From: a virus
Taxonomy: Duplodnaviria > Heunggongvirae > Uroviricota > Caudoviricetes
Direction: 5' to 3' (one strand)
IMG/VR virus record: IMGVR_UViG_3300021963_008171
Coordinates: 10,995-74,994 of that record
DNA: 64,000 bases
Made by a program: the position numbers and the translations under genes
Shown: in pieces, positions 9,456-64,000 of the stretch
Numbering within the stretch: position 1 is the stretch's first letter
Layout of the letters: every line of letters begins with the position of its first letter
Notes under the pieces: model-generated
Databases searched by the model: none
What the model saw: only the letters and a program-made list of their open reading frames with translations
Told to the model about the DNA's origin: nothing

Positions 9456-9799
9456 TGAAAAAGATATTATTCATATTTCTGATTTTACTGTATGGATGTA
9501 CTAAACCGGAGTTACCAACACCGGCACCGCCAGTCGAAAAAATATTTGATGTTGGGGAGAGTAGTGTTACCAATGGACAATCTTTGTATTTTGATTTACC
9601 ATCACCTGGAGTTTATATTTTATCCTTAATTGATAAAGAGACAAACCAAGTAATAAGCAGAGAAAAATTCGTGGGTCAGATTGGGGAGAATTCAAGAAAG
9701 ATCTATACCAATTCTATAAAATCACAAACGCTATATCTATTGTTGTCAGATTCTTCTAAAAACGAGATGAAAAGAACAACTATATTAATAAGAAAATAA
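9455..9799 (+). CDS. small lipoprotein, beta-sandwich-like (T9SS-CTD-like pattern)
   Basis: MKKILFIFLILLYGC lipobox. The stretch GQSLYFDLPSPGVYILSLIDKETNQVIS...LYLLL resembles the Por-secretion-tail / Ig-like pattern. Confidence 0.55.
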   Translation: MKKILFIFLILLYGCTKPELPTPAPPVEKIFDVGESSVTNGQSLYFDLPSPGVYILSLIDKETNQVISREKFVGQIGENSRKIYTNSIKSQTLYLLLSDSSKNEMKRTTILIRK

Positions 9800-9810
9800 A
9801 ATAAAAAGAA

Positions 9811-10185
9811 ATGAAAAAATCACTAATCTTCTCAATCTGCGTTATTCTATTTGCAGGATGTACAAAAGACGACATGCTAATTCCTATGCAGGAACAAATT
9901 AAACCAGAGCTTGCTATTCAAAACAGCGTGGGTATTAAATTAGAAACCCCATTTGTTTCCAAGGAAGTTTCAATGAACGTAAAATTGGAAAAGGAAGGTA
10001 CTGTAGTTATTAAAATAACTGACATATCAAATAGAGTTGTATCTAAGGAACAGGTTAATGTAAAGGCTGGAGATAATCTATTGAAAGTTTATACCTCTGC
10101 TTTACCATCTTCTTCATATAGAATTGGTATCTACGACTCTAGTAACAATCTTCTAGGAATAACAGACTTTAATAAGATAAACTAA
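9811..10185 (+). CDS. small lipoprotein, beta-sandwich-like (T9SS-CTD-like pattern)
   Basis: MKKSLIFSICVILFAGC lipobox. The stretch VVIKITDISNRVVSKEQVNVKAGDNLLKVYTSALPSSSYRIGIYD matches the xIxIxDxxGRxV...G.N...L..G.Y pattern. Confidence 0.55.
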   Translation: MKKSLIFSICVILFAGCTKDDMLIPMQEQIKPELAIQNSVGIKLETPFVSKEVSMNVKLEKEGTVVIKITDISNRVVSKEQVNVKAGDNLLKVYTSALPSSSYRIGIYDSSNNLLGITDFNKIN

Positions 10186-10223
10186 AAGATTATCTTAAAA
10201 TATTTGAGGCGGAGAAAAATTGA

Positions 10224-11669
10224 ATGAAGAAATTATTATTGTTCCTTTTATTGGTAGTAGCATCCTTTGCTGCTAGTGCACAGACCTTCACCCAGACCTA
10301 TGTGGATAAATGTACTGGGGAGCTCAAAGTTGTGGTGTCTGCTCCTATGCCCAATGGTGGAGTAATGATTTCTTTTTATAATCAAATGAAGATATTCACG
10401 AATGCGCAGGTCAATGACGGAACGGTTCAAAAATGGCTGAATCAAGTTTATACTGATTATAATACAAGACCTTGTCCAGTAAGTACTGTTGCTGTACAAA
10501 CAGTTCAACAAACTGTTGCACAAGCGGCATCAGCTGCTGCATCTGCTGCAGCTTCTTCCGCAGCAAGTAATGCAGCTTCATCTGCAGCTAGTTCTTCGGC
10601 ATCAGCTGCTGCTTCATCGTCTGCAAGTAGCGCTGCAAGTTCTTCTGCATCATCTTCTGCTAGTGCTTCTGCTGGTTCATCCGCGGGTGCTTCTGCTGGT
10701 TCATCAGGAGGTCCTTCTTCTCAAAGCTCAGGCGGATCTTCAGGTTCATCTAGCTCTAACGGGGAAAGTAAAAGTAGTGGATCATCATCAGGAGAATCAA
10801 AATCTGAAAGTAAAGCTGAATCAAAATCTGAAAGTAAATCAGAATCAAAATCCGAAAGTAAAAGTGAGGAGAAGAAAGAGGAAAGCAAATCTGAGAGTAA
10901 AAAAGAGGAGAAGAAAGAGGAGAATAAAAAAGAAGAAGAGAAGAAAAAAGAGGAGGAGAAAAAGAAAGAAGAGGAAAAGAAGAAGAAAGAAGAGGAAAAG
11001 AAGAAGAAACAATCCGTTAGTAATCCCACACTAGTTGCTTCCGATCTTGCAGTAACACAAGGAAATGACGGTAGATATTCTGCTATGATATCAACAGGTA
11101 TAAGCAAATCTTCCATGACGGGAACGGAAAGTTGGGGATTAACATCCATGATATGGACAACATTTGATCAATTTGCTTTGAATGGCGGATACACTAAAAT
11201 GAATTTCGAAAAAGGCAAATTAAAGAACATAGATTCATATTCTATGACATTAGCATACCTTCAGGGAAATATCATGATTATGCAGGGTTATACGCACATT
11301 AAACCGGATCCTAAGATAGGTACTTATGGATTTAACGTAGGAGTTGTTAGCTTATTATTAAAGGATGGAAATAAGTATACCTATTCTGCTTCTTTTTCGT
11401 CCATCGGATTTTGGACAAAGATTTATCAGGTAAATAAAAAAACATCAATAGCTCCTCAGGTTTTCGTAACAAGCTCCCCGATATCATGGAATCCAAACAC
11501 CAATCAAACCTTGGTAAACAGACATTACGGATATATGACAGGGTTTTCGTATGACTACAAATTAACTGGAAGATTCGGGCTTAATCTAAATTATAGATTT
11601 TCTGGATCAACCCAAGCGGGAACACCGATATTGCATAATTTTATGATAGGATCGAGGATTATGCTGTAG
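10224..11669 (+). CDS. secreted protein: N-terminal domain, long Ser/Ala to Ser/Gly to Ser/Glu/Lys to Glu/Lys low-complexity linker, and C-terminal beta-barrel-like domain
   Basis: Signal peptide MKKLLLFLLLVVASFAASAQ. The linker spans roughly 160 residues. The C-terminal ~200 aa are paralogous to 8301..9194 and end ...FMIGSRIML. Confidence 0.65.
   Translation: MKKLLLFLLLVVASFAASAQTFTQTYVDKCTGELKVVVSAPMPNGGVMISFYNQMKIFTNAQVNDGTVQKWLNQVYTDYNTRPCPVSTVAVQTVQQTVAQAASAAASAAASSAASNAASSAASSSASAAASSSASSAASSSASSSASASAGSSAGASAGSSGGPSSQSSGGSSGSSSSNGESKSSGSSSGESKSESKAESKSESKSESKSESKSEEKKEESKSESKKEEKKEENKKEEEKKKEEEKKKEEEKKKKEEEKKKKQSVSNPTLVASDLAVTQGNDGRYSAMISTGISKSSMTGTESWGLTSMIWTTFDQFALNGGYTKMNFEKGKLKNIDSYSMTLAYLQGNIMIMQGYTHIKPDPKIGTYGFNVGVVSLLLKDGNKYTYSASFSSIGFWTKIYQVNKKTSIAPQVFVTSSPISWNPNTNQTLVNRHYGYMTGFSYDYKLTGRFGLNLNYRFSGSTQAGTPILHNFMIGSRIML
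10523..11010 (+). repeat. coding low-complexity tract including a 3 x 24-nt tandem repeat (10794-10865)
   Basis: GAATCAAAATCTGAAAGTAAAGCT, GAATCAAAATCTGAAAGTAAATCA and GAATCAAAATCCGAAAGTAAAAGT encode ESKSESK(A/S). GCN/TCN runs lie upstream and GAA/GAG/AAA/AAG runs downstream. Confidence 0.85.
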
Positions 11670-11675
11670 AAAAAA

Positions 11676-11707
11676 GATATATAAAGTTGAAAAAATCCTC
11701 ATTCCGT
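11676..11707 (+). promoter_or_regulatory. leader box copy 2: GATATATAAAGTTGAAAAAATCCTCATTCCGT
   Basis: Matches 3680-3710 except for one substitution and one inserted T. It begins 7 nt after the stop of 10224..11669 and heads a 168-nt leader before ATG 11844. Confidence 0.5.
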
Positions 11708-11843
11708 TAGCAAGAAATCTACATTTCTTCGTACGTCTTTTCAAAACTAGCTGGCTTATTGCCGGAAACCTGTATGAAAGGCGGGTCTCAACTTTGAGTA
11801 TTTTTTCTAGGTATTAAAAAAAACCGAATATAAAATAAACAAA

Positions 11844-26844: not shown

Positions 26845-28470
26845 ATGAGCAAGTTATCAGAGTACGCGGTTAAGTCCAAAACAGAAATTAGAAAATACGA
26901 GGATCTAGTTGTTGAGAATTTTATGGGGGGTAATTCCTATAAATTGTCACCGCTACAAACACTTAAAATAGTAGCTGCTAGCTCGATCTTCGGGGAGCCA
27001 CAGTACTATAGAGATGGGATAAAGAAGCAGGCTTCGATAAAGAACCATGATACCCTATTGAAATACTCAATATTTGCTGGCCTTATAGAAGGCTGTACCT
27101 CCGCAGCGGACGTTTTTACGAACGCTATTGATGCAGCCTTAGATTATGACTTCAAGGGAACTTTAGACTTAGCTACGGAGCTAAGAATGGTGTTTTTTAT
27201 GAGATTAAACCCAGCCGTCATATTTATACGTGCTTCTATCCATCCAAAAAGAGCAGAATTCAATGGATCCAACCCAGGATACATGAAAACTGTGGGCAAA
27301 TCCATAGCACTTAGACCCGATGATTTAACAAATCAGCTTGAATATTTCATGTACGTGAACAAGACAAAAAGCAAATTAAGCTCCATTGTTAAAAGAACCT
27401 GGGCAGAAAGACTTGGAGAGTATTCAAGATATCAACTAAACAAATACAAAGGCAAAAGTCTAATTGATCTTGTTAGAATTTCACACGCTTGGAATAATGA
27501 TATAGATGAGCTAATGAAGACCGGATCTATCAAGGTTGAAGAATCTGAAAGAACATGGGAAAATTTAAGGTCGGAGGGCAAGACATGGAAGGAGATTCTA
27601 GAAGCAATCGAAATCCCTCACATGGCTCTTTTGAGAAATCTGAGGGGAATCTTCAAAGAAATAGAGGATTTGGAGATTGCTAAATCCGTCATGACAAAAT
27701 TATCGGCTGGTGTTACTAAGGGAAATCAATTTCCATTTAGATATTGGTCTGCATATAAAGCGGTAGAGAAAGAAGAAATAAATCATAAAGGAGTCATTCT
27801 TGATGGATTAGAGGAGTGCATGGACATTTCAGTACTGAATATGCCAAAGCTTGATGGAAAAACTATATGTCTTTCCGATAATTCAGGATCTGCCTGGGGT
27901 CAGTTATCATCAGAATATGGAACGGTTTATGCAGCAGAGATAGCAAATCTTTCTTCACTGATTACTGGAAAACAATCCGACGAAGGCGAAATAGGTTTAT
28001 TCGGAGATCGCCTTATTGTAGAGTCAGTTTCTAAAAGAAATGGACTTCTATCTCAGTTAAAAGCTATCAATGAGGTGGAGAGAGATCATGGTAAATTGGG
28101 GGGAGGCACAGAGAATGGGATTTGGTTGTTCTTCGATGATGCAATCAAGAGTAAAAAACATTACGATAACATTTTTATCTATTCTGATATGCAAGCTGGA
28201 CATGGTGGGTTATATGGAACAGATTCTTCAGAATATAAAGATTTCTTACATGGAGATTGGAGGCATATAGATGTTCTAGCTCTTGTTTCTAAATATAGGA
28301 AAGACGTGAATCCCAAGGTGAATCTATTTTCCGTTCAAGTTGCTGGATATGACAATACAGTATTGCCGGAGAATCTTTATAGGGGAGCTATTTTAGCAGG
28401 ATGGACGGGTAAAGAGCCAGTTTTTGCTAAGGCGTTAATCGACACCTGGAACGAAATAGAAAATCGATAA
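26845..28470 (+). CDS. rsr: Ro60-like TROVE-domain protein with a C-terminal vWA domain
   Basis: By-eye matches to human Ro60: NKYKGKSLIDLVRISHAWN vs YKQRNGWSHKDLLRLSH; IPHMALLRNLRGI vs MPLTALLRNLGKM; NQFPFRY vs RIHPFHI. The vWA MIDAS-like motif is ICLSDNSGSAWG. Confidence 0.85.
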   Translation: MSKLSEYAVKSKTEIRKYEDLVVENFMGGNSYKLSPLQTLKIVAASSIFGEPQYYRDGIKKQASIKNHDTLLKYSIFAGLIEGCTSAADVFTNAIDAALDYDFKGTLDLATELRMVFFMRLNPAVIFIRASIHPKRAEFNGSNPGYMKTVGKSIALRPDDLTNQLEYFMYVNKTKSKLSSIVKRTWAERLGEYSRYQLNKYKGKSLIDLVRISHAWNNDIDELMKTGSIKVEESERTWENLRSEGKTWKEILEAIEIPHMALLRNLRGIFKEIEDLEIAKSVMTKLSAGVTKGNQFPFRYWSAYKAVEKEEINHKGVILDGLEECMDISVLNMPKLDGKTICLSDNSGSAWGQLSSEYGTVYAAEIANLSSLITGKQSDEGEIGLFGDRLIVESVSKRNGLLSQLKAINEVERDHGKLGGGTENGIWLFFDDAIKSKKHYDNIFIYSDMQAGHGGLYGTDSSEYKDFLHGDWRHIDVLALVSKYRKDVNPKVNLFSVQVAGYDNTVLPENLYRGAILAGWTGKEPVFAKALIDTWNEIENR

Positions 28471-59333: not shown

Positions 59334-60251
59334 ATGAATTTCGAAGAAAGATATGCTCAACAAATCAAAGAGAGGGAAGAGCAAGCACAACAAGAAAAAT
59401 TAAAAAAACAAATAAAACAAAAACAGATGATGAGAAACATTTTAATTGGGGTTGGGTTATTTTTTACACTAACCTTTTTATTCTTCTCTTGTGAGAGGAT
59501 CGATGCAGGACACGTTGGCGTCAAGGTGAATCAGTACGGGGATAATAAAGGCGTGGATGATGTTGTTGCAGTTACCGGTATGGTATTCTTTAATCCATTC
59601 ACAACTGCAATCTATGAATTTCCAACTTTTATTCAACACAAAGAATATAAAGGAGAGAATTCATTTGTGGTAAATAGCAAAGATGGTTCTGAATTTAGTG
59701 TTTCTCCTATTATGAACTACTCCGTACAGAGAGATAAAGTACCAGCAATCTTTAGTAAGTATCGTAGACCATTAGAAGATATTGAAGAAGGCTTTTTAAA
59801 AACTGCTGTGTATGATGCTTTTAGATTGGCAACTAATAAATATACTGCGGATGAATTAATTTCAAACAGAGCAGTATTTGAAATTGAGGTTCGCAGATTA
59901 CTAGACGGACAACTATTAAAAGAGGGTTTTATCATTAATCAATTCACGTCTAACCTGATCTACCCAGAAACATTTAAGAAATCTATTGAAGCTAAAAATA
60001 ATGCGGTACAAGCAGCTTTAAGAGCTGAGAACGAAGTTAAAACTGCAGAAGCACAAGCTAAGATTAAGGTAGCAACTGCTGAAGGTAATGCACAGGCTAT
60101 GCTAACGTCTGCAAAGGCAGAAGCTGAATCAAATAGAATGAAACAGCAGACATTAACACCACTGTTATTGCAATTGGAGTACATTAATAAATGGGACGGA
60201 AAACTTCCTGTTTATGGAACTGCACCTATGTTATATAAACCGGTTAACTAG
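59334..60251 (+). CDS. SPFH/band-7 (prohibitin-like) membrane protein
   Basis: N-terminal TM helix, IDAGHVGVKVNQYG, and a C-terminal Ala/Glu/Lys coiled region ...ALRAENEVKTAEAQAKIKVATAEGNAQA.... Confidence 0.8.
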   Translation: MNFEERYAQQIKEREEQAQQEKLKKQIKQKQMMRNILIGVGLFFTLTFLFFSCERIDAGHVGVKVNQYGDNKGVDDVVAVTGMVFFNPFTTAIYEFPTFIQHKEYKGENSFVVNSKDGSEFSVSPIMNYSVQRDKVPAIFSKYRRPLEDIEEGFLKTAVYDAFRLATNKYTADELISNRAVFEIEVRRLLDGQLLKEGFIINQFTSNLIYPETFKKSIEAKNNAVQAALRAENEVKTAEAQAKIKVATAEGNAQAMLTSAKAEAESNRMKQQTLTPLLLQLEYINKWDGKLPVYGTAPMLYKPVN

Positions 60252-60278
60252 GATTTACAAGAAACTAAATCTTCCTCC

Positions 60279-60297
60279 GAATATATAATCCTCAATT
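60279..60297 (+). promoter_or_regulatory. GAATATATAATCCTCAATT: promoter-like motif upstream of the tmRNA
   Basis: Combines the ATATATAA core with AATCCTCA(A)TT, which also follows the core in the two leader boxes. It ends 16 nt before the tmRNA 5' end. Confidence 0.45.
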
Positions 60298-60313
60298 AGT
60301 TCTTTTAAATATT

Positions 60314-60725
60314 GGGGATGACATGGCATTTGATCCGGATGTGGATTTTAATACTACACGCAGAGGTATGGTACTCATCCTCTTTAATCTCGGTACAAAC
60401 AAGTAAACGACGTAGAATTATCTACCATGACTTTCGAAGACGCAATGTCTTTCGTAGGTGCTGATTACGCACTAGCTGCCTAATCACTCCCGCACACATC
60501 GTGGGACTTAAAATAGAATGTGTACCAAGGTGTGATTTCTACCCAAAAAGGAATAAGGTCACGTTCAGAGGACTACCTTAATACAAGTGAACTCGACACA
60601 GTTATTGGTAACGATGTCAAAATAGGAACCATTTATTTTGTTAGGCAAGAAAAACTAGCTAAGCGTGTGAGACGTTAGTATTATTATTTCTTTCGGAGAC
60701 CGGGGTTCGAATCCCCGCATCTCCA
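60314..60725 (+). ncRNA. ssrA: tmRNA (transfer-messenger RNA)
   Basis: 5' GGGGATG pairs with CATCTCC (60718-60724), including a G3:U pair. T-arm CGGGG-TTCGAAT-CCCCG. Discriminator A at 60725. The internal tag frame ends ...GGT GCT GAT TAC GCA CTA GCT GCC TAA (GADYALAA*, stop 60481-60483). Confidence 0.9.
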
Positions 60726-60737
60726 CAAATTTTATAT

Positions 60738-60812
<75 letters not shown>

Positions 60813-60823
60813 AATTTAAAATC

Positions 60824-61207
60824 ATGTCTACCAATTGTAATATCTGCAGCGAAAAATGTTTTGGAAAGGATGGATATGATGGAAGTTGCTGTACAATAGA
60901 AGCACGTGACTATATCATAGGTCCACATAAGGACGCTAAGCAATTCATTCAATCATTATCATTAAAGCTCGGAAGAGAGATCAGCTACGAGTCAATATTC
61001 ATTGATTACGAAGAAGGAAAAAGACTTTTTCCCGACAAATCCGCATGGCAAAGCCCAACTTCATATCCTGCATTCAGAGTTGATCTAAATAATCCAAGAA
61101 ACCCCTGCATCTTTTACAATACAGTAGTTAAATCATGTATGGTATATGATATCAGACCAGAAACATGCGAGACATATCAATGCGATTATCTTAAAAGTAA
61201 TCTCTGA
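60824..61207 (+). CDS. YkgJ-family (CxxCxxCC) Cys-cluster protein
   Basis: ATG 60824 is in frame with track ORF 60752, whose 5' part overlaps the tRNA. CNICSEKCFGKDGYDGSCC...CIFYN...CMVYDIRPETCETYQC. Confidence 0.6.
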   Translation: MSTNCNICSEKCFGKDGYDGSCCTIEARDYIIGPHKDAKQFIQSLSLKLGREISYESIFIDYEEGKRLFPDKSAWQSPTSYPAFRVDLNNPRNPCIFYNTVVKSCMVYDIRPETCETYQCDYLKSNL

Positions 61208-62838: not shown

Positions 62839-64000
62839 ATGCCATTAATTTTAAGAAACGTCAAAGGTTCGGCTTTAACCATCAATGAGATGGATGATAA
62901 CCTTGAGTATTTATACAATAGGACATCGGTTGGAACATCAGGTACTGCTGGTACATCAGGTATTCAAGGATCCCAAGGATTTCAAGGTGCTCAGGGTCTA
63001 ACAGGACCTCAAGGTCTTAAAGGTGATACCGGGTCAACCGGAGCACAGGGTAGCACAGGATCAACCGGGGCTCAAGGAGCTCAGGGATTAACTGGTTCAG
63101 GAGCACAGGGAGCAGAAGGTCCAACCGGAGCACAGGGTAGCACAGGATCAACCGGAGCTCAAGGAGCTCAGGGATTAACTGGTTCAGGAGCACAGGGAGC
63201 AGAAGGTCCAACAGGGGCTCAGGGAGACATTGGATCTACAGGATCACAGGGAGCGCCGGGAACAGGAGCACAGGGAGCGCCAGGTCCAACAGGAGCACAG
63301 GGTGATACAGGTTTAACCGGAGCTCAAGGAATTAGCGGAACATCTGGCCAGTCAGGAGCACAAGGTCCAGCAGGTTCAGGAGCGCAAGGGGATCCAGGTC
63401 CAACGGGAGCTCAGGGAGACCCTGGATTAACAGGAGCACAAGGTCCAGCAGGGGCGGGAGCTCAGGGAGAGGCTGGTCCAACGGGAGCTCAGGGAGACAC
63501 TGGATTAACGGGAGCACAAGGAGCACAAGGTCCAGCAGGTTCTGGGGCACAGGGTGATTCAGGTCCAACCGGAGCTCAGGGGGACATCGGATTAACAGGA
63601 GCGCAAGGACCAGCAGGTTCTGGAGCCCAGGGTGCAGAGGGTGCTCAGGGAGCAACAGGAGCAGATGGATCCTCAATTACCTGGATGGGTGGATGGGTTA
63701 ATAATATACCATACGGAGAAAACGATGTAGTACAATATAATGGCAATTCCTACATAGGAACTGTAAATTCGATAACAGTAGGGGTAGCACCTGAAAATAA
63801 TCTAGCGGAATGGGACATATTTGTTCTTTCTGGGGAAGGAGCTCAAGGAGCAGAAGGAGCACAGGGTGCTAACGGAGCAGCTGGAGCACAGGGAGCAGCA
63901 GGTGAAGGAGCTCAGGGAGATGCCGGATCTGCAGGAGCGCAGGGAGCTAAAGGAGATGATGGGTCCGCAGGGGCACAAGGAGCAAAAGGAGACACAGGAG
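62839..64000 (+). CDS. collagen-like (Gly-X-Y) fibre protein with an embedded CBM5/12-like module; 3' end lies beyond the window
   Basis: Hand translation is open from ATG 62839 to the window edge. N-terminus MPLILRNVKGSALTINEMDDNLEYLYNRT. About 250 residues of GXY follow (GTSGTAGTSGIQGSQG...). A non-collagen block ITWMGGWVNNIPYGENDVVQYNGNSYIG...AEWDIFV lies at 63676-63828, after which GXY resumes. Confidence 0.85.
   Translation, partial: MPLILRNVKGSALTINEMDDNLEYLYNRTSVGTSGTAGTSGIQGSQGFQGAQGLTGPQGLKGDTGSTGAQGSTGSTGAQGAQGLTGSGAQGAEGPTGAQGSTGSTGAQGAQGLTGSGAQGAEGPTGAQGDIGSTGSQGAPGTGAQGAPGPTGAQGDTGLTGAQGISGTSGQSGAQGPAGSGAQGDPGPTGAQGDPGLTGAQGPAGAGAQGEAGPTGAQGDTGLTGAQGAQGPAGSGAQGDSGPTGAQGDIGLTGAQGPAGSGAQGAEGAQGATGADGSSITWMGGWVNNIPYGENDVVQYNGNSYIGTVNSITVGVAPENNLAEWDIFVLSGEGAQGAEGAQGANGAAGAQGAAGEGAQGDAGSAGAQGAKGDDGSAGAQGAKGDTG
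63034..63207 (+). repeat. 2 x 87-bp tandem duplication inside the collagen-like gene
   Basis: 63034-63120 and 63121-63207 differ at 2 positions. Each encodes 29 aa ((S/P)TGAQGSTGSTGAQGAQGLTGSGAQGAEG). Confidence 0.9.

Follow-up and report, generated by a model that had tools for sequence, protein, structure and literature searches.

A phage-borne tmRNA gene in a Caudoviricetes genome and its probable 24-residue tag

The tmRNA gene and its described counterparts

The tag encoded by the transfer-messenger RNA (tmRNA, or SsrA) of Escherichia coli is ANDENYALAA. To our knowledge phage tmRNAs, although known, have hardly been studied, and the need of a virus for a ribosome-rescue RNA of its own is unexplained. 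Described here is a tmRNA gene on a 64,000-nt stretch (referred to below, at its full length, as the window) of the Caudoviricetes record IMGVR_UViG_3300021963_008171, where the region under study runs from 60279 to 60725. The tag that the gene specifies is, in all likelihood, a long one, with an acidic and hydrophobic extension placed before the sequence GADYALAA, and it is the comparison with related phage tmRNAs that argues for this length.

The locus shares with canonical SsrA a tRNA-like domain (TLD) with the G3:U70 pair and a T-arm, a first pseudoknot (PK1) followed by an A-rich linker with an adenine at position -4 of the resume codon, an internal frame without a start codon that ends in YALAA and UAA, and a pseudoknot-rich body. 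Its last eight residues, GADYALAA, resemble the whole of a Bacteroides-type tag, the native form of which is GETNYALAA (bioRxiv 10.1101/2025.03.18.644028), and the "host-style" degron proposed in a preliminary description of this DNA is plausible in that light. Unlike canonical SsrA, the gene is encoded by a phage, its tag is read as 24 rather than 9-10 residues, the 3' CCA is not encoded, and no smpB was found adjacent to it or nearby in the window among the open reading frames (ORFs) of at least 150 residues that were tested.

Long tags have been described from both bacteria and phages. In Mycoplasma the tag is 27 residues long, and the extra length carries determinants for the Lon protease (PMC8403727). 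As in the window, the tag is over twice the usual length, and its extra residues are thought to direct tagged proteins to a protease other than ClpXP. The Mycoplasma tag is bacterial, however, and its extension correlates with loss of ClpXP, whereas the window tag keeps an ALAA end and would act in a host that can only be inferred. Among phages, the tmRNA of Bxz1 (Bixzunavirus) is perhaps the closest in character. In a re-derivation from the GenBank record, its resume codon stands at nt 96, behind GAUAAAC, and its tag has 25 residues, ATDTDATVTDAEIEAFFAEEAAALV, a sequence present in ARAGORN's own tag list. Like the window gene it belongs to a large-genome phage, lies among tRNA genes, resumes at nt 96 and has a long acidic tag with aromatic residues, and Bxz1 too encodes a Ro/TROVE-like "RNA-binding protein" (gp220, 552 residues). 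Sequence homology is not detectable between the two, the tag sequences are unrelated, the host phyla differ, and the Bxz1 tag ends in AALV whereas that of the window ends in the canonical YALAA. As far as sequences can tell, the window tmRNA resembles that of Bxz1 in kind and not in lineage; a long tag on a phage tmRNA has its precedent in Bxz1, and the tag sequences of the window are new.

Other phage tmRNAs are known from mycobacteriophages and Bacillus phage G (PMC4131195), from huge phages (PMC7162821) and, overall, from 2.3% of sequenced phage genomes (PMC9004378); the supplements to the last study name the phages with tmRNAs and give no tags. Marine phages such as the OM43 phage Melnitz carry a two-piece (permuted) tmRNA (PMC9004378). 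This is likewise a phage-encoded ssrA, thought to sustain hijacked translation or to tag proteins for recycling, but it is circularly permuted, of alphaproteobacterial type and in some cases riboswitch-controlled, while the window gene is of the standard one-piece form.

The window gene is matched by the Rfam covariance model RF00023 at 60314-60728 on the + strand, over model positions 1-374 of 374, with a score of 80.4 bits (E 1.4e-29; the gathering score is 47 bits), so that the fold suggested in the preliminary description was not rejected. ARAGORN at default thresholds did not report a tmRNA gene in the window; at relaxed thresholds (-ps) it placed one at 60314-60726, with the tag ADYALAA and the resume codon GCU 60460. 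The sequence from 60100 to 60900 was also read directly for coordinate checks, and the canonical tmRNA ends and TTCGAAT T-loop that had been noticed earlier are present, with every coordinate correct. The parts of the RNA are as follows.

60314..60725, + strand: tmRNA (ssrA) gene, from the 5' G to the discriminator A (Rfam RF00023, ARAGORN -ps)
60314..60320, + strand: 5' strand of the acceptor stem, GGGGAUG, in which G3 (60316) pairs with U (60722), the alanine identity pair
60362..60396, + strand: PK1, with stem 1 AGAGG 60362-66/CCUCU 60379-83 and stem 2 GUACU 60371-75/GGUAC 60392-96
60397..60408, + strand: A-rich, single-stranded linker AAACAAGUAAAC, with A60405 as the -4 adenine, equivalent to E. 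coli A86
60409..60483, + strand: probable tag frame, 24 codons DVELSTMTFEDAMSFVGADYALAA and stop UAA 60481-60483; residues 1-16 are the extension, 17-24 are GADYALAA
60460..60483, + strand: alternative short tag ADYALAA (relaxed ARAGORN), nested in the long frame
60484..60672, + strand: pseudoknot-rich body (PK2-PK4 region), by Rfam alignment with low posterior probabilities
60673..60725, + strand: 3' part, with helix 2 (3' strand), T-arm, acceptor stem (3' strand, 60718-24) and discriminator A60725

The acceptor stem comprises 7 bp, formed by GGGGATG 60314-60320 with CATCTCC 60718-60724, and its third pair is G:U. Over about 50 relatives the pairs G1-C, G2-C and G3-U are invariant and pairs 4-7 covary (nine acceptor variants). 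The T-arm, CGGGG-UUCGAAU-CCCCG at 60701-60717, consists of a stem (60701-05/60713-17) and a GUUCGAAUC-type loop, UUCGAAU, at 60706-12. Several pairs of the PK2-PK4 region are non-canonical in the Rfam alignment, and candidate pairings there were seen by eye only. That the tmRNA gene is genuine is nonetheless close to certain, and the evidence supports a complete one-piece tmRNA on a phage genome. The earlier proposal that the element brings its own trans-translation RNA is in keeping with both the RF00023 match and the neighbourhood of phage genes.

The resume codon and the length of the tag

The internal frame is bounded by in-frame TAA codons at 60385-60387 and 60481-60483 and reads SRYKQVN-DVELSTMTFEDAMSFVGADYALAA. 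It has neither a start codon nor a Shine-Dalgarno sequence, and its end, GADYALAA-UAA, occupies 60457-60483. The codon GAC 60409-60411 corresponds to nt 96 of the tmRNA and stands 12 nt after PK1 in the context GUAAAC|GAC; the two stops, this codon and the 24-codon frame that it opens all lie where the preliminary description had placed them. The 24-residue tag contains no Lys or Arg. At the base composition found here 24 stop-free codons would arise by chance with a probability of about 0.19. Because the open frame alone is not significant, the long tag was tested by comparison with relatives. These were retrieved through homologues of a 127-residue CxxCxxCC gene that follows the tmRNA, and then by an exact scan with the window PK1 sequence, which led to the closest relatives, L125/L206/L208 (a 245-kb IMG/VR contig) and L207/L209.

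Across the family the position and context of the resume codon are highly regular. In 45 unique related phage tmRNAs the first tag codon falls at nt 91-97, with G as its first base (GGC, GGA or GAC), and the A at -4 is invariant; in E. coli numbering this is A86, which has been shown experimentally to dominate frame selection (PMC2481249). All family members have an H-type pseudoknot upstream, in which 12 distinct stem-1 and 20 distinct stem-2 pairings are all complementary and thus amount to covariation (counted by a per-sequence pseudoknot search, the columns of a MAFFT alignment having the stems out of register). In 35 of 40 family tmRNAs, 9-12 nt separate the 3' end of PK1 from the first codon. 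The window linker, CAAACAAGUAAAC, is identical to that of locus L152, where a conserved 21-residue tag, GNVLDKLSAVGFIRTEEVAVA, starts directly after it.

A sister family (L105-L204) shares with the window the tmRNA-then-CxxCxxCC neighbourhood, the resume position, the linker and a homologous body (PK3/PK4) and 3' end, and possibly a common tag core, TF..M..(L/V)G. It differs in the sequence of PK1, in the first codon (GGC, against GAC in the window), in the length of the tag (21 against 24 residues) and in the lack of a YALAA end. The sister tag reads GNTFAKMA(A/T)LGL(T/I)(R/A)E..VV.A. Among 31 unique DNAs it holds no in-frame stop, with stops in the other two frames in 27 and 30 of them, and the entropy of its third codon positions is 0.86 vs 0.57 and 0.52 at positions 1 and 2.

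The closest relatives bear on the window tag itself. L207/L209 have PK1 as in the window and the tag DNELSTMTFEDAMSFVGADYAVAA. Compared with the extension in the window, six codons (4, 5, 6, 8, 11 and 12) show single-base differences in L209, namely UUA to UUG, UCU to UCA, ACC to ACA, ACU to ACC, GAC to GAU and GCA to GCU, every one of them at a third position and synonymous, for which the chance of all six falling on third positions is (1/3)^6 = 0.0014; one further codon of the extension is replaced, V to N. In L125/L206/L208, again with PK1 as in the window, the context AUAAAC|GAC opens an unrelated frame of 27 codons, DNTIARQEIGASIINMAFANAPVALAA, that ends in VALAA. Resumption at GAC 60409, as proposed in the preliminary description, is thus strongly supported by comparative evidence, both by the family-wide position and context and by the synonymous changes in L209. 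A tag of 24 residues is accordingly the reading to be held with considerable confidence, and its 16-residue acidic and hydrophobic extension is, judged from the pattern of substitutions, under purifying selection, which means that the sequence of the extension matters.

The main alternative is an ordinary short tag, resumed at GCU 60460 (ADYALAA) or GGU 60457 (GADYALAA), with the preceding 51 nt forming an untranslated structured insertion. A resume codon near 60457 had been named at the outset as the outcome that would remove the long tag, and GCU 60460 is indeed the choice of relaxed ARAGORN, in a context (CGUAGGU|GCU) near the UAGUC|GCA of E. coli. GADYALAA also matches the native Bacteroides GETNYALAA in length and form, two hairpins are predicted in the 51 nt, and Rfam aligns 30 nt of that stretch as an insertion. 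Such a site would, however, be separated from PK1 by 63 nt, where the family has 9-12 nt, and the six L209 differences in the supposedly non-coding stretch are all third-position synonymous changes of the long frame. In the L125-type allele 27 codons stay open and the distal Ala codon is not preceded by a UA context, the base at -4 of GGU 60457 is C instead of A, and ARAGORN mis-calls the conserved 21-residue sister tags as well (VENNVWVG for L113 and L118, for example). In predicted folding stability the extension does not exceed shuffled sequence (z -1.4; the L125-type tag, taken from L206, gives z -0.25), on which ground a structured non-coding insert was rejected, and L209 does not keep the first predicted hairpin in register. 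The family comparison favours GAC 60409, and a short tag is an improbable reading of these data.

Several observations nevertheless weigh against a functional tmRNA with a 24-residue tag. At the short-tag site, GUAGGU|GCU, the bases at -5 and -4 are likewise U and A, and an A at -4, being found at both GAC 60409 and the distal 60460, does not discriminate between them alone. The true first codon may lie one or two codons away from GAC 60409, with seven more open codons upstream and a linker that is A-rich. Only one informative variant of the window tag was found (L207/L209), and two of its six synonymous changes, GAC to GAU and GCA to GCU, would also preserve a predicted hairpin. At the 3' end the tail is ACAA (CAA after A60725), and CCA is not encoded, vs ACCA in most relatives. 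Finally, no SmpB, Clp or Lon was found among the 52 window ORFs (10 selected and 42 of at least 150 residues) that were compared with families.

Proposed action of the tmRNA and exchange of its modules

In the mechanism proposed for the 24-residue tag, transcription would begin at about 60296 from a conserved A/T-rich element upstream, and host RNase P would trim the transcript at G60314. As CCA is not encoded, it would be supplied by the CCA-adding enzyme of the host. The G3:U pair, which is present, would allow host alanyl-tRNA synthetase (AlaRS) to charge the RNA with alanine, and together with SmpB, which the host or another part of the phage genome would supply, the tmRNA would enter stalled ribosomes. 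Translation would then resume at GAC 60409, 12 nt after PK1 and with the conserved A at -4, the step most strongly supported by comparison, and the ribosome would add Ala plus DVELSTMTFEDAMSFVGADYALAA before terminating at UAA 60481. Because the last eight residues resemble a complete host-type tag, the product would presumably be delivered to ClpXP-type or other tail-recognising proteases. The extension might most likely act as an extra recognition surface for an adaptor or a different protease, a speculation drawn by analogy with the Mycoplasma tag. Taken as a whole, the mechanism is judged likely, somewhat less firmly than the length of the tag.

The relatives show the gene to be mosaic. 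The L103 tmRNA is identical to that of the window over its first 172 nt, through the stop of the tag, and then continues in a different and longer body (501 nt in total); its tag is 100% identical to the window tag, while the flanking protein is only 87% identical. Within L103 1245-2268 (compare window 60314-60728) this tmRNA is followed by a 155-residue GIY-YIG/NUMOD-like ORF, and the arrangement looks like homing-endonuclease-driven module exchange within a tmRNA gene. The body (PK2-PK4) is swapped wholesale in L103, L125 and L209, and in L209 and L125 the window PK1 is combined with other TLDs, tags and bodies. Sequence comparison thus shows the tmRNA locus as a hot spot of modular exchange, in which the TLD, PK1 plus tag, and the body appear to be swapped independently.

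The body, with its poor alignment to Rfam and its wholesale exchange between close relatives, is also part of what could be said for a second alternative, in which the RNA is a decoy that binds SmpB or alanyl-tRNA synthetase and so inhibits host trans-translation, or else a decaying, non-functional copy. The CCA that is not encoded would fit such a role, and a precedent exists in the TLD-only RNA of mycobacteriophage DS6A, for which titration of SmpB has been suggested (PMC4131195). All tmRNA modules are nevertheless present in the window, within a full-length covariance-model match, and the frame of the tag is under purifying selection at the protein level. The L103 tag is completely conserved beside a diverged flanking protein. 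A decoy would have no need of the A at -4, the PK1 spacing and the hydrophobic C-termini that are conserved throughout the family, and this alternative has very little probability.

In one widespread group of freshwater phages, represented by the window gene and its roughly 50 relatives, tags are as a rule long and constrained at the protein level. ARAGORN misses such genes or gives them wrong short tags, and surveys based on it (PMC7162821; PMC9004378) therefore likely mis-describe phage tmRNAs. The tags of the phage tmRNAs found here have lengths of 21, 24, 26, 27 and possibly 47 residues, beside the 25 of Bxz1. A more general proposal, put forward tentatively and with the odds against it, is that lineage-conserved extended tags are a selected property by which a phage replaces the host SsrA tag and reroutes the products of stalled ribosomes. 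Such products might then go to another protease or adaptor, have their amino acids recycled faster, or be protected from, or targeted by, a phage factor. On this proposal the window tag would be a composite of a phage-specific 16-residue recognition module and a host-type GADYALAA degron. Were the extension to redirect tagged proteins, it would constitute a new phage route to the reprogramming of host protein quality control. In the open literature searched, no description was found of family-wide long tags, of linkage to the CxxCxxCC gene, of mis-annotation by ARAGORN or of mosaicism at the locus.

Several loci, including L176 (655-860) and L186 (877-1093), have a group I intron (Rfam RF00028, 72-98 bits) within or close behind the phage tmRNA gene, and further cases were seen in L187 (933-1148), L084 (904-1133), L091 and L092. 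The L176 intron lies in the T-arm, between ...GCGAACAA and AGTCCCGTCTTCTCCACCA, and the spliced RNA would carry the tag DNTLSKMALLGLIAEEAPVVA. Another phage tmRNA, L088 5516-5964 (Rfam 62 bits), has a frame of 47 open codons that runs from the GAC after UUAAUC (nt 92) and ends in QLAMAV, of which ARAGORN reports the last 25 residues only. The L088 tag is possibly exceptionally long, if it is read from the PK1-proximal codon.

Several other routes to relatives were followed. In 80 IMG/VR loci reached via the highly conserved upstream SPFH gene, nhmmer and blastn with the window tmRNA gave no match and ARAGORN detected no tmRNA; among the SPFH-gene loci, only the two closest and most syntenic (L001 and L042) have a tmRNA after the SPFH gene, of a different lineage and on contigs that end inside it. 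A 21-mer from the 5' TLD of L042 led to 14 contigs with standard, permuted and intron-bearing tmRNAs, unrelated to that of the window and unalignable to it. Exact scans of viral contigs with a 32-mer of the window 3' TLD and a 21-mer of its 5' end gave 0 matches, and loci reached via the downstream exonuclease gene (L081-L083) contain no tmRNA and no tRNA. The contigs of the closest CxxCxxCC homologues (P0002, P0003, P0005 and P0007) start just after the tmRNA, and the tag does not vary among the near-identical strains L099-L102. The whole tmRNA had no match at E <= 1e-3 by blastn against 50,697 deposited phage records, and other blastn matches to GenBank phages fell in the region of the TLD 3' end and tRNA-Met (query positions 424-542). 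Contigs L001, L042, L101, L102, L121-L124 and L207, from several independent assemblies, end inside or at the tmRNA, and such ends fit strain-level mosaicism that breaks assembly graphs.

The phage genome, neighbouring genes and the host

The tmRNA is preceded by a promoter-like block and followed by a tRNA gene and two protein-coding genes of note.

60279..60297, + strand: promoter-like block GAATATATAATCCTCAATT and presumed 5' leader, with TATAAT at 60284-60289; putative function
60738..60812, + strand: tRNA-Met (CAU), by ARAGORN and Rfam (67.7 bits), 12 nt after the tmRNA
60824..61207, + strand: 127-residue CxxCxxCC gene (PF03692-like, "Fe-S cluster protein"), with 111 homologues
62839..64000, + strand: collagen-repeat tail-fibre gene of 742 residues, which runs off the window; starts 2.1 kb downstream of the tmRNA

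The block GAATATATAATCCTCAATT ends 16 nt before the 5' end of the tmRNA, as had been noted in the preliminary description, and a ATATATAA[T/C] block is kept at equal distance upstream of the tmRNA in L001, L042, L103, L207, L208 and L209. A sigma-70 consensus scan of the + strand did not call it, and the promoter role suggested for it is one to which conservation points. As a recurrent phage promoter motif, ATATATAAT was rejected for want of enrichment, ATATATAAY having 2 matches in the window vs 4.65 expected.

In the tRNA-Met, A1 and A72 are mismatched (A1xA72) and the lowest three pairs of the anticodon stem are G-C (GGG/CCC). Both are initiator features, and the tRNA looks like an initiator. 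The order tmRNA then tRNA is also found in L125/L208 and L103/L104. The CxxCxxCC gene is closely associated with tmRNAs, one of which lies directly upstream in nearly every contig that encodes a homologue (loci L103-L120 and L125-L204). The counts are 15 of 18 metagenome loci and about 60 of 80 IMG/VR loci, of which a simple structural search gave 48 and Rfam 10 more among the 20 remaining loci that were checked. The gene occurs in 103 IMG/VR stretches vs 1 of 185,579 bacterial species genomes, the sole match in the bacterial collection being a phage-like contig binned with a Saprospirales metagenome-assembled genome (MAG) and carrying no tmRNA; tblastn of the protein against GenBank phages gave 0 matches. 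The CxxCxxCC protein may be a functional partner of phage tmRNAs and, if the proposal of rerouting by extended tags is true, could be a partner in the tagging pathway.

L098, an 85.5-kb contig of an ENA freshwater metagenome, includes a stretch identical to the window, its positions 9506-11734 corresponding to window 62839-65067. The tail-fibre gene carries the Pfam domains Collagen and Peptidase_S74 and matches a PHROG tail fibre at E 4.5e-123. GC content rises from about 35% to 46% where this gene, with its G-x-y collagen repeats, starts at 62839. It is followed by a second, larger gene (1117 residues in L098); the two genes that occupy these positions in L206, of 829 and 994 residues, both encode collagen-repeat tail fibres. 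IMG/VR viral contigs of up to 434 kb carry relatives of the flanking genes. The window ORFs tested are mostly auxiliary in nature and include glycosyltransferases, sugar-nucleotide enzymes, radical SAM, TROVE/Ro-like, HAD_SAK_2 and SPFH proteins and endonucleases; capsid and terminase were not found among the 52. The element can be taken, with little reservation, for a large freshwater phage, and the tmRNA for phage-borne. Among GenBank phages the SPFH protein matches crAss-like Bacteroides phages and Lak Prevotella megaphages best, and because of these and of the contig binned with the Saprospirales MAG, the host of the phage is probably a member of the Bacteroidota.

ssrA is a frequent integration site of prophages. 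A window that covers a bacterial chromosome or a prophage edge, with the tmRNA as the host's own ssrA, might be argued from that habit, from the TonB-dependent-receptor-like genes that adjoin the CxxCxxCC gene in several related loci and from the lack of a capsid or terminase gene among the tested ORFs, but it is scarcely credible given the tail-fibre gene 2.1 kb downstream, the mid-contig position of the tmRNA, with phage-type genes on either side, on IMG/VR contigs that reach 245 kb (L125/L206), the near confinement of the CxxCxxCC gene to viral sequences, the mosaic structure of the module with a homing-endonuclease-like ORF and group I introns in relatives, and the fact that no integrase and no attachment repeat were seen.

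The TonB-dependent-receptor-like genes (CarboxypepD_reg and Plug domains) stand directly after the tmRNA/CxxCxxCC pair on several contigs classed as viral (L127 1969-3378, L141, L154, L158 and L114-L116, with 904 residues in L114). Such cargo is unusual for a phage and points to a Bacteroidota host. Elsewhere in the window, 26845-28470 encodes a 541-residue TROVE/Ro-like RNA-binding protein (phrog_850, E 5e-42), for which Rfam at gathering thresholds called no Y-RNA-like partner. Just upstream of the SPFH gene and the tmRNA, the segment 57117-58782 holds a metallophosphatase gene and a gene of the HAD_SAK_2 ("Swiss Army Knife" RNA repair) type, and may represent an RNA-repair or translation-maintenance neighbourhood. 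Both genes are conserved in the closest relatives, L001, L042, L206 and L209.

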